From: Escherichia coli
Lineage (GTDB): Bacteria > Pseudomonadota > Gammaproteobacteria > Enterobacterales > Enterobacteriaceae
Strand: one strand, 5' to 3'
NCBI RefSeq assembly: GCF_003018115.1
Contig: NZ_CP027457.1
Length of the DNA: 64,000 bases
Shown here: piece by piece, positions 12,746 through 38,590 of the stretch
Layout: the number at the start of each line of letters is the position of its first letter
How positions within the stretch are numbered: the stretch's first letter is position 1
The notes under the pieces: model-generated
Databases searched by the model: none
What the model saw: only the letters and a program-made list of their open reading frames with translations
Told to the model about the DNA's origin: nothing
Position numbers and translations under genes: made by a program

Positions 12746-12922
12746 GCGCTTTTAGAGCACGCATTTTTTCATACTCTAAATAATTCGAGTTGCAGGAAGG
12801 CGACAAGAGAGTGAATCCCCAGGAGCTTACATAAGTAAGTGACTGGGGTGAGCGAACGCAGACGCAGCACATGCAACTTGAAGTATGACGAGTATAAGGC
12901 CCGACGATACAGGACAAGAGAC

Positions 12923-14002
12923 ATGTCTAAGATTTTTGATTTCGTAAAACCTGGCGTAATCACTGGTGATGACGTACAGAAAGTTTTCCAGGTAGCAAAA
13001 GAAAACAACTTCGCACTGCCAGCAGTAAACTGCGTCGGTACTGACTCCATCAACGCCGTACTGGAAACCGCTGCTAAAGTTAAAGCGCCGGTTATCGTTC
13101 AGTTCTCCAACGGTGGTGCTTCCTTTATCGCTGGTAAAGGCGTGAAATCTGACGTTCCGCAGGGTGCTGCTATCCTGGGCGCGATCTCTGGTGCGCATCA
13201 CGTTCACCAGATGGCTGAACATTATGGTGTTCCGGTTATCCTGCACACTGACCACTGCGCGAAGAAACTGCTGCCGTGGATCGACGGTCTGCTGGACGCG
13301 GGTGAAAAACACTTCGCTGCTACCGGCAAGCCGCTGTTCTCTTCTCACATGATCGACCTGTCTGAAGAATCTCTGCAAGAGAACATCGAAATCTGCTCTA
13401 AATACCTGGAGCGCATGTCCAAAATCGGCATGACTCTGGAAATCGAACTGGGTTGCACCGGTGGTGAAGAAGACGGCGTGGACAACAGCCACATGGACGC
13501 TTCTGCACTGTACACCCAGCCGGAAGACGTTGATTACGCATACACCGAGCTGAGCAAAATCAGCCCGCGTTTCACCATCGCAGCGTCCTTCGGTAACGTA
13601 CACGGTGTTTACAAGCCGGGTAACGTTGTTCTGACTCCGACCATCCTGCGTGATTCTCAGGAATATGTTTCTAAGAAACACAACCTGCCGCACAACAGCC
13701 TGAACTTCGTATTCCACGGTGGTTCCGGTTCTACTGCTCAGGAAATCAAAGACTCCGTAAGCTACGGCGTAGTGAAAATGAACATCGATACCGATACCCA
13801 ATGGGCAACCTGGGAAGGCGTTCTGAACTACTACAAAGCGAACGAAGCTTATCTGCAGGGTCAGCTGGGTAACCCGAAAGGCGAAGATCAGCCGAACAAG
13901 AAATACTACGATCCGCGCGTATGGCTGCGTGCCGGTCAGACTTCGATGATCGCTCGTCTGGAAAAAGCATTCCAGGAACTGAACGCGATCGACGTTCTGT
14001 AA
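12923..14002 (+). CDS. fbaA: fructose-bisphosphate aldolase class II (359 aa)
   Basis: MSKIFDFVKPGVITGDD N-terminus; ATG at 12923. Confidence 0.95.
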   Translation: MSKIFDFVKPGVITGDDVQKVFQVAKENNFALPAVNCVGTDSINAVLETAAKVKAPVIVQFSNGGASFIAGKGVKSDVPQGAAILGAISGAHHVHQMAEHYGVPVILHTDHCAKKLLPWIDGLLDAGEKHFAATGKPLFSSHMIDLSEESLQENIEICSKYLERMSKIGMTLEIELGCTGGEEDGVDNSHMDASALYTQPEDVDYAYTELSKISPRFTIAASFGNVHGVYKPGNVVLTPTILRDSQEYVSKKHNLPHNSLNFVFHGGSGSTAQEIKDSVSYGVVKMNIDTDTQWATWEGVLNYYKANEAYLQGQLGNPKGEDQPNKKYYDPRVWLRAGQTSMIARLEKAFQELNAIDVL

Positions 14003-14026
14003 GTCATTCCTTTCTGCTTATCTCAA

Positions 14027-14052
14027 GGCCCGCTCTGCGGGTCTTTTTTTTG
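14027..14052 (+). terminator. intrinsic terminator after fbaA
   Basis: cccgc-tct-gcggg hairpin followed by an 8-T run. Confidence 0.7.
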
Positions 14053-14066
14053 CCAAAAGAAAAATT

Positions 14067-14167
14067 GCCTGATGCGCTACGCTTATCAGGCCTACACGTA
14101 TCCTGCAATATATTGAATTAGCAGGTTTTTGTAGGCCGGATAAGGCGTTCACGCCGCATCCGGCATG
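14067..14167. repeat. BIME: two REP palindromic units in inverted orientation
   Basis: gcctgatgcgctacgcttatcaggcctac and gtaggccggataaggcgttcacgccgcatccggcatg match the REP consensus. Confidence 0.8.
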
Positions 14168-14194
14168 ACAAAGCGCACATTGATATCTGTCTGA

Positions 14195-14219
14195 GCCCCG
14201 CTCTGCGGGTCTTTTTTTC
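14195..14219 (+). terminator. second copy of the fbaA-type terminator hairpin, direct repeat of 14027..14052
   Basis: ccccgctctgcggg hairpin plus T-run, nearly identical to the first copy. Confidence 0.6.
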
Positions 14220-14360
14220 GCCAAAAGCAAGGTGATACAGATGAGAAATCTGTGATCTATTTGGCAAAATTATGCTTTATTGTTTACCCTTGTCAGACTG
14301 CCCGTCATAAGGCGGCGGAGTGTATTTCTCCATTTTGAGTCAGTTGAAAAGGAATATTGA

Positions 14361-15221
<861 letters not shown>

Positions 15222-38447: not shown

Positions 38448-38470
38448 AAAGGCGCTTCGGCGCCTTTTTA
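38448..38470 (+). terminator. intrinsic terminator after gcvP
   Basis: ggcgc-ttcg-gcgcc hairpin followed by TTTTT; A-run upstream suggests it could act bidirectionally. Confidence 0.75.
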
Positions 38471-38544
38471 GCTTGTTAATAAAGTGCGCTTTGTGTGTTT
38501 CGGCTGAGGCGTAATATAAAATCTTGCGAGCTCAATATATTAAA

Positions 38545-38590
38545 AGAGTGCCAGGCCTGATGAGCGTATCGCATCAGGCACATCGGCTAA
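38545..38590. repeat. REP palindromic unit
   Basis: gccaggcctgatgagcgtatcgcatcaggcacatcggc resembles the REP consensus. Confidence 0.6.

Follow-up and report, generated by a model that had tools for sequence, protein, structure and literature searches.

Duplicate fbaA terminators around a BIME-1 element in Escherichia coli: a probable target duplication and its later turnover

Repetitive extragenic palindromic (REP) sequences and bacterial interspersed mosaic elements (BIMEs) constitute the most abundant non-coding repeats of Escherichia coli, and the route by which they reach new sites has been an open question for some 40 years. The BIME-1 class is defined by a z1 and a y REP joined by a long linker L, often with a site for integration host factor (IHF), and is found in single copy (Ton-Hoang 2012). 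Transposition of the IS200/IS605 'peel and paste' type makes no target duplication (Nunvar 2010), and a 2026 preprint calls the REP insertion mechanism 'not fully established' and insertion itself 'semi-random'. Here we analyze a BIME-1 in the spacer between fbaA and mscS, within a 64,000-nucleotide stretch of E. coli DNA (contig NZ_CP027457.1; the window in what follows), where a nearly exact copy of the fbaA terminator stands on each side of the element. We propose, with a probability of about 85%, that integration of the BIME-1 at the fbaA terminator duplicated its target, that the resulting unit has been unstable ever since, and that the second terminator catches read-through. The element, its family, its IHF-type linker and the presence/absence polymorphism of BIME-1 are already known, and the locus is an ordinary K-12 BIME-1 that serves here as an example of recurrent, structure-defined target duplication. 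Duplication of a hairpin or terminator at BIME flanks is not mentioned in Ton-Hoang 2012 (in which the words 'duplication' and 'direct repeat' do not occur), Nunvar 2010, Delihas 2011, Bertels & Rainey 2011 or the 2026 preprint; Gilson 1991 and Bachellier 1997 could describe it.

The fbaA gene is the last of epd-pgk-fbaA, and the spacer that separates it from mscS measures 358 bp in the window and 357 bp in K-12 MG1655, with the same gene arrangement. The features of the locus are these:

12923..14002, + strand: coding sequence of fbaA, class II fructose-bisphosphate aldolase (translation ending in ...AFQELNAIDVL*; RefSeq name on identical DNA)
14025..14051, + strand: terminator 1, the ancestral fbaA intrinsic terminator (terminator scan, fold, conservation, K-12 Term-seq)
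14027..14062, + strand: direct-repeat copy 1, the left target duplication, made up of hairpin, T-run and GCCAAAAGAAA (repeat search)
14063..14194, + strand: BIME-1 of the RIP/RIB type, its left end shortened by about 8-20 nt (profile match, REP pattern, Rfam linker match)
14067-14095: Z1-type REP (GCCTGATGCGCTACGCTTATCAGGCCTAC)
14096-14130: linker L, about 35 nt (BIME-1 profile and Rfam ES036)
14131-14165: inverted Y-type REP (exact match to the Y pattern)
14166-14194: conserved 'A motif' of 29 nt
14193..14218, + strand: terminator 2, the duplicated copy (terminator scan and fold; K-12 Term-seq for the K-12 version)
14195..14230, + strand: direct-repeat copy 2, the right target duplication, which runs on into the ancestral right flank GGTGAT...
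14018..14230, − strand: 70-codon open reading frame (ORF) with a TTG start, composed wholly of repeat sequences and not a gene
14361..15221, + strand: coding sequence of mscS (ORF list, RefSeq comparison)

A repeat search of positions 13950-14400 returned a single direct-repeat family, with copies at 14026-14062 and 14194-14230 that begin 168 bp apart and agree at 34 of 37 positions (92% identity). Each copy comprises the GC hairpin, the T-run and 11 further nt, and the window has exactly two occurrences of the 22-nt core CCCGCTCTGCGGGTCTTTTTTT, with 0.00 expected from shuffles. The first-pass annotation, made from the letters of the window alone, had described the terminator hairpin and T-run of fbaA as repeated almost exactly on the two sides of a BIME, and these figures bear that description out. 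Apart from two window-specific substitutions, copy 1 is the single copy of the short allele described below, while terminator 2 now stands at the distance from mscS that the lone terminator has in the ancestral allele, whose spacer is 190 bp. The minus-strand ORF at 14018..14230 had been dismissed as spurious, rightly on the present evidence: it has no Pfam match, it is missing from the short-allele genomes and from all outgroups, and a single RefSeq genome has only a 'partial hypothetical' pseudo-call there.

On its sequence the element between the copies is a canonical BIME-1, with a Z1 REP, an IHF-type linker, an inverted Y REP and an A motif, and one such unit is present at fbaA-mscS in the window as in E. 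coli. Nine full-length BIME-1 copies went into an nhmmer profile that aligns with 14051-14193 at E=5e-42, over model positions 9-152 of 153, the left outer motif being partly missing. The mobile palindromic repeat spans about 130 bp; the arms of its Z1 and Y REPs are 93% complementary, and as RNA the whole element folds to -47 kcal/mol (z -5.9). The annotated limits of the REP structure, 14067..14167, were correct for the two inverted REPs and too narrow for the element, which runs on through the A motif to 14194. An IHF-core-like sequence, ATTCAATATATTG, lies at 14106-14118 on the minus strand with one mismatch, and the window holds many matches of this kind (67 against 50 expected). The only Rfam match above its gathering score falls on the linker (14088-14130, minus strand) and belongs to ES036, the CssrF 'sRNA' (small RNA), a family whose model seems to describe the linker of a repeat element and not an sRNA from one locus; matches to naRNA4, which derives from REP325, fall below threshold on the Y REP. 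The window also holds a second, decayed BIME-1-like element at 38470-38581 on the minus strand (profile positions 23-151, score 51), in which only the Z1 REP is intact (about 38555-38580). The A-motif end of this relic adjoins a terminator-like hairpin, AAAGGCGCTTCGGCGCCTTTTT (38449-38470), and so fits the rule that a BIME-1 end lies next to a hairpin.

The ancestry of the site was examined in loci anchored on MscS from 80 species-representative genomes. In about 50 enterobacterial genera with fbaA directly upstream (Citrobacter, Klebsiella, Enterobacter, Kluyvera, Kosakonia and others) the spacer measures 174-194 bp and carries one conserved hairpin and T-run, at an equal distance from the stop codon, and no REP. 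Two divergent 'E. coli' or Escherichia species clusters (L005 and L006) are also short, with one terminator. Since some 50 other genera have one terminator and no BIME, the single-terminator state is, by this comparison, ancestral; the comparison with other enterobacterial fbaA 3' regions that had been proposed as a check thus falls on the side of the original observation. We also considered whether GCCAAAAGCAA, the stretch after the T-run, might be a footprint derived from the BIME, which is ruled out by its homologue, GCC(T/A)4.CAA, in the same position in BIME-free outgroups; the stretch is therefore target DNA and not BIME DNA.

Within E. coli both states are found. The long form is present in 3,719 of 5,425 complete genomes (69%), and the remaining genomes, about 1,700 in number (~31%), are exactly 168 bp shorter and have one terminator, with separate place counts giving the same split. 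The short allele consists of the left flank, one terminator and the right flank, as expected of an empty site if the insertion duplicated its target. The BIME of Escherichia whittamii has the same junctions as that of E. coli, and Escherichia sp. E1V33 has a 527-bp spacer with three terminators and two BIMEs, in which the tandem unit (168/169 bp) is BIME plus terminator and not BIME alone; the 168-bp unit has thus been amplified in tandem. Across the 5,425 E. coli genomes and about 55 outgroup loci the spacer lengths seen were 190, ~357 and 527 bp only. In some E. coli genomes the terminator is matched as many as three times; these may likewise carry the two-unit allele seen in E1V33.

The architecture recurs at other BIME-1 sites. 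An exact-pattern scan for the junction of A motif and Y REP recovered 82 E. coli-like metagenome contigs, whose alignment places the left end of the element at GAGACTGATGACAAACGCAAAA and the right end at ...AAAGCGCACTTTGTCAACAATCTGA, the two being imperfect inverted repeats of each other. At 4 of 11 distinct full-length sites a locus-specific hairpin is directly duplicated over 21-25 bp, 0-5 nt from both ends of the element. The alignments of these duplications score 13.5-23, whereas 110 mismatched left/right pairs reach 9.0 at most. With rutG-ymdF and fbaA added, hairpin duplication is present at 6 of about 13 full-length sites, and one more site has an 8-bp case. The 34 nt adjoining the two BIME-1 ends have median folding energies of -12.0 and -13.0 kcal/mol, against -4.9 kcal/mol at 70-104 nt away (p=0.001 and 0.005). 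Three of the loci have both filled and empty alleles among the RefSeq genomes of E. coli:

pitA-uspB (K-12, L183:39180-39330): filled in 1,941 genomes; empty allele 173 bp shorter, with a single hairpin
yccJ-agp (L135:3406-3557): filled in 89 genomes; empty allele 182 bp shorter, with a single hairpin
rutG-ymdF (L135:5059-5209): filled in 1,733 genomes; empty allele 175 bp shorter, with a single hairpin

In the filled alleles of these loci the hairpin lies on both sides of the BIME-1, and at all three, as at fbaA-mscS, the empty allele equals the filled allele minus the element and one repeat copy. Together with the single terminator of the outgroups and of ~31% of E. coli, and with an insertion/deletion that equals the 168-bp period, these parallels give strong support to the earlier suggestion that the terminator was duplicated around a REP insertion. 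Duplication lengths at the four loci are ~21-25, 22-23, 23-29 and 32-37 bp, with limits that track the feet of the hairpin. At the other loci only the stem-loop is duplicated, the upstream copy has no T-run and the BIME lies inside the 3' untranslated region (UTR); fbaA departs from this pattern, its duplication taking in the T-run and about 11 nt more and its BIME being shortened at the left end. That the copies are direct is seen from polarity markers (TCT, TTGC, TCA, GAGAA/GTGAA, and a C/A mismatch at pitA-uspB), and an origin of inverted copies by template-switch extension of the BIME palindrome is ruled out, loops and stem asymmetries having the same polarity on both sides.

Several further observations concern this sample. 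The target at pitA-uspB is a bidirectional terminator between convergent genes. The flanks of site L123 are not E. coli, and it stands outside the empty-allele comparison. A survey of 200 kb of K-12 (3.60-3.80 Mb) contained two full-length BIME-1 copies only, both already in the sample, and two scans of viral contigs gave 0 BIME-1 matches. At one metagenome locus (L137/L147 compared with L139) the right hairpin copy beside the BIME-1 is deleted in some contigs, which read …AATCTAACCTAC… for …AATCTGAGGTCAAATTTCAATCTAACCTAC…; one-copy loss at such loci may explain BIME-1 sites with a hairpin on one side only.

The two terminators at fbaA differ in the strength of their predicted folds. Terminator 1 has a stem of 14025-14033 paired with 14037-14045, a TCT loop and a T8 run at 14044-14051, and folded alone it forms a 9-bp stem of -14.1 kcal/mol (z -3.5); it has one extra T relative to K-12. 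Terminator 2 has a core stem of 14197-14201 paired with 14205-14209, the same TCT loop and a T7 run at 14212-14218, and its fold alone has 5 bp and 3 bp on the two sides of a C-U mismatch, with -9.9 kcal/mol (z -1.2). In K-12 and in 9 of 10 sampled E. coli long alleles hairpin 2 is CCCCGC-TCT-GCGGGG-A-T6, with a perfect 6-bp stem, and at stem position 6 an ancestral G-U pair has become C-G in most E. coli long alleles. The hairpin 2 of the window carries the C without the G, a state that probably arose by conversion from copy 1. In E. whittamii hairpin 2 has decayed and its folding is lost.

Curated 3' ends from Term-seq in K-12 MG1655 (Adams et al. 2021 eLife, Supplementary file 1; PMC7815308) place RNA ends at both hairpins. 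At an optical density (OD) of 0.4 the terminator 1 end is at 3070119(-), with 160,555 reads in LB and 120,854 reads in M63, and no terminator 2 end is curated in either sample; in LB at OD 2.0 the terminator 1 end is at 3070118(-) with 54,607 reads, and a terminator 2 end, classed as 'orphan', is at 3069950(-) with 44,902 reads (PMC7815308), which is 82% of terminator 1 in that sample only. From the printed 61-nt contexts, 3070118/9 corresponds to the fifth or sixth T in terminator 1 (about 14048-14049 in the window) and 3069950 is the last T of terminator 2. Ends at hairpin 1 alone would have told against a role for the second hairpin, and this is not what is seen. The layered termination that had been suggested is borne out in part: ends lie in the T-runs of both hairpins, the second of them in LB at OD 2.0 only and on an RNA that may start at the fbaA operon promoters. 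A simple promoter scan gave no plus-strand promoter-like site between the terminators, which fits read-through as the source of the RNA ending at terminator 2 and is weak evidence, not proof. The sole sigma-70-like match in the fbaA-mscS spacer lies on the minus strand at 14269-14296 (CTGACA-16-CATAAT, 10/12, a consensus match only) and faces away from mscS, toward terminator 2 and the BIME. We found no papers that join fbaA with Term-seq in their text.

The mRNA stabilisation that the same annotation had put forward as a possibility is harder to sustain. With terminator 1 complete, the BIME lies outside most fbaA transcripts, and REP-type stabilisation could thus act on the read-through fraction only; the idea is weakened further by the frequent natural loss of the unit and by the decay of hairpin 2 in E. 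whittamii.

The turnover of the unit can be followed in its flanks, compared over 3.3 kb and 63 informative sites in 18 genomes. The flanks of Nissle 1917 (short) are identical to those of K-12 and FDAARGOS_1371 (long), and those of TW10590 (short) to those of O111:H8 and MBT-5 (long). Single-nucleotide polymorphisms directly to the left (GTC/GAT) and to the right (T/A/G) of the repeat occur in every combination with both alleles, and short alleles are found also on the divergent haplotypes of CU532-9, AVS0456 and 7CC. The long alleles have one origin, because derived changes in copy 2 are common to them. Given that single origin, and since identical flanking haplotypes carry either form, the simplest reading is that the unit has been lost recurrently and precisely between its direct repeats. 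A chimeric deletion product, with the left arm of copy 1 and the K-12-type right arm GGGGATTTTTT, was found in 0 of 5,426 genomes, 1,627 short ones included. This leaves two possibilities, which may both hold: crossing over takes place solely within the 18 bases identical between the copies at the 3' end of the repeat, as would be expected of slippage once copy 1 had been copied in full, or a part of the short alleles is ancestral.

From these results we envisage the following history. In an ancestral lineage within Escherichia, a BIME-1 of about 150 bp (a REP doublet with an IHF-type linker) would have integrated at the fbaA intrinsic terminator and, in a single step, duplicated ~32-37 bp of target, that is the whole hairpin, the T-run and about 11 more nt, so that one complete terminator came to lie on each side of the element. 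Terminator 1, at the ancestral spacing from the fbaA stop codon, would end most transcripts, and terminator 2, at the ancestral spacing from mscS, would catch read-through RNAs, whose 3' UTR would contain the BIME and its strong fold. The 168-bp unit of BIME and one terminator copy would be unstable because direct repeats flank it, its precise and recurrent loss giving the short allele and its amplification the E1V33 array. The variable length of 21-37 bp and the limits at stem-loop feet point to breaks placed by DNA structure and not by a fixed transposase stagger: staggered nicks could arise at the two feet of a hairpin, either extruded as a cruciform or on single-stranded DNA, and repair synthesis could then leave a copy of it on each side of the captured element, and the direct repeats, brought together by the BIME palindrome, would account for precise loss and tandem gain. 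We offer more tentatively, at somewhat short of even odds, the broader proposal that BIME-1 integrates specifically at GC-rich stem-loops, mostly intrinsic terminators, with breaks at their feet copying the whole hairpin, so that fbaA would be one footprint of a general, so far undescribed mechanism. Its variable duplication, set by structure, would distinguish it from DDE transposases with their fixed stagger and from the IS200/IS605 route usually assumed for REPs, which duplicates no target. If this is true, both neighbouring genes keep their terminator context through such an insertion, and the direct repeats by which the element is later deleted or amplified arise with it.

Other origins for the paired terminators have been weighed against this history. 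That the hairpins resemble each other by chance or convergence has next to no probability: intrinsic terminators share a generic shape, but here 34 of 37 nt are identical, including the loop and 11 nt past the T-run, the 22-mer core is expected 0.00 times, and the insertion/deletion equals the 168-bp period exactly. It is very improbable, though less so, that the terminator was first duplicated in tandem (~40 bp) and that a BIME-1 later landed exactly between the copies. The longer duplication at fbaA than elsewhere and the shortened left end of the BIME would allow for more than one event, as would the conversion between copies that is evident in the allele of the window; yet no two-terminator allele free of a BIME was seen in the 5,425 E. 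coli genomes or the ~55 outgroup loci, and five other BIME-1 sites have the same hairpin on both sides, three of them with single-hairpin empty alleles, such that five or six independent coincidences would have to be accepted, which is implausible. The double terminator might instead be an adaptation, selected against read-through into mscS and for fbaA mRNA stability through the REP hairpins. We regard this as unlikely, even though K-12 3' ends lie at both hairpins with the second prominent at OD 2.0, most long alleles retain a paired hairpin 2 through the change from G-U to C-G, the long allele prevails in the species (69%), and REPs can serve as 3' stabilisers and partial terminators, according to a 2026 preprint and to Dar & Sorek 2018. 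Against it, the unit is absent from 31% of E. coli and recently lost on at least two haplotypes, hairpin 2 is decayed in E. whittamii and mismatched in the window strain, the ancestral single terminator is enough in all other genera, and a complete terminator 1 excludes the BIME from most fbaA transcripts; unrelated loci, including one with a rare filled allele (89 genomes), show the same architecture, which the insertion process explains.

A reading with a better claim, though we hold it the less probable course of events, takes the long form as ancestral for E. coli and all short alleles as deletions between the 37-bp repeats, so that the polymorphism would reflect loss only. E. coli shares the BIME with the same junctions with E. 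whittamii and Escherichia sp. E1V33, both alleles sit on identical flanking haplotypes, and direct repeats around a palindrome are classic slippage substrates. On the other side, the two divergent Escherichia clusters are short, the chimeric product is missing from all 1,627 short genomes, and short alleles sit on the divergent haplotypes of CU532-9, AVS0456 and 7CC. This reading is compatible with target duplication by an integrating BIME-1 followed by instability of the unit, and the difference comes down to how many of the short alleles are primary.

Our preferred account, insertion with target duplication, itself faces several difficulties, which we collect here. At fbaA the duplication extends ~17 nt past the hairpin, the BIME has no counterpart to the first ~8-20 nt of its consensus, and the left junction lies in imperfect homology between target GCCAAAAGCAA and BIME GACAAACGCAA; this suggests that the junction was guided by microhomology or altered by later gene conversion between the copies, and a second event may have shaped it. 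The BIME-1 sample is small (~13 full-length sites) and consists in part of unverified metagenome contigs, and transposition is read from sequence comparison, with no enzyme implicated. Some or all of the E. coli short alleles could be ancestral and not secondary; none of the 5,426 genomes holds the chimeric product. The terminator 2 end is curated in one of three conditions and without a mapped 5' end, and could be a product of processing or decay; the 3'-end data come from K-12, whose hairpin 2 is stronger than that of the window. Strong selection on terminator 2 is unlikely, since it has decayed in E. whittamii and the whole unit has been lost in a third of E. coli.

If the account holds, four loci with filled and empty alleles and hairpin-length duplications give the insertion of BIME-1 a concrete target, the stem-loops of terminators, and a footprint that any mechanism must reproduce. 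The duplication would explain why BIME-1 insertions are tolerated, as the terminator stays in its native position for both neighbouring genes, and would also explain the precise excision of these elements. The natural allelic series of one, two and three terminators behind an operon that ranks among the most highly expressed offers a test bed for the effects of REPs and tandem terminators on mRNA 3' ends and on downstream insulation.

Two neighbouring regions yielded observations of their own. The pgk-fbaA spacer (about 12775-12900 in the window) contains GTGAATCCCCAGGAGCTTACATAAGTAAGTGACTGGGGTGAGCG, which resembles an ERIC/IRU repeat; an 'orphan' K-12 Term-seq 3' end, 3071314, lies inside this region, and a similar ERIC-like sequence occurs in the fbaA-mscS spacer of Intestinirhabdus alba. 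Downstream, E. coli EC1 has a longer mscS annotation (876 bp) and, between mscS and argO, an extra gene for a TRAP-transporter substrate-binding protein that is absent from the other sampled genomes.

Among described systems the nearest to the fbaA element is its own family, the BIME-1 or RIP/RIB elements (REP, IHF site, REP), with which it shares inverted Z1 and Y REPs, a long linker with an IHF-core-like sequence, one unit per locus, extragenic location by the 3' end of a gene and presence/absence polymorphism among strains; it differs in being without the first ~8-20 nt of the consensus left end. A 1997 Genetics abstract by Bachellier reportedly speaks of 'excisions of a whole BIME-1'. Like MITEs (miniature transposable elements with inverted repeats) and other non-autonomous transposons, BIME-1 is short and non-coding, has imperfect terminal inverted repeats (GAGACTGATGACAAA / TTTGTCAACAATCTGA), is found with filled as well as empty sites and lies between direct repeats of target DNA, but the duplications of MITEs are of fixed length (2-15 bp, from the stagger of the transposase), whereas those of BIME-1 are 21-37 bp, depend on the locus and end at stem-loop feet. 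REPIN/RAYT systems, with their IS200/IS605-like Y1 transposase (TnpA-REP), resemble it in the REP doublet, in the GTAG/CTAC at the feet of the REPs and in a presumed single-strand hairpin chemistry; theirs is free of duplication, in contrast to the long direct duplications at 6 of ~13 full-length BIME-1 copies. Other elements also recognise their target as a stem-loop in extragenic DNA, as do class C group II introns, which insert after terminators, and IS1397 and ISKpn1, which insert in REP loops; these go in next to the hairpin or within it and leave a short duplication or none, and we know of none that duplicates the whole target hairpin. Tandem intrinsic terminators, of which rrnB T1-T2 is an example, likewise place two hairpin and U-tract terminators in series behind an operon of high expression, and 3' ends lie at each of the two, but the fbaA pair are copies of each other, 168 bp apart, with a mobile repeat between them, and are present in part of the species only.

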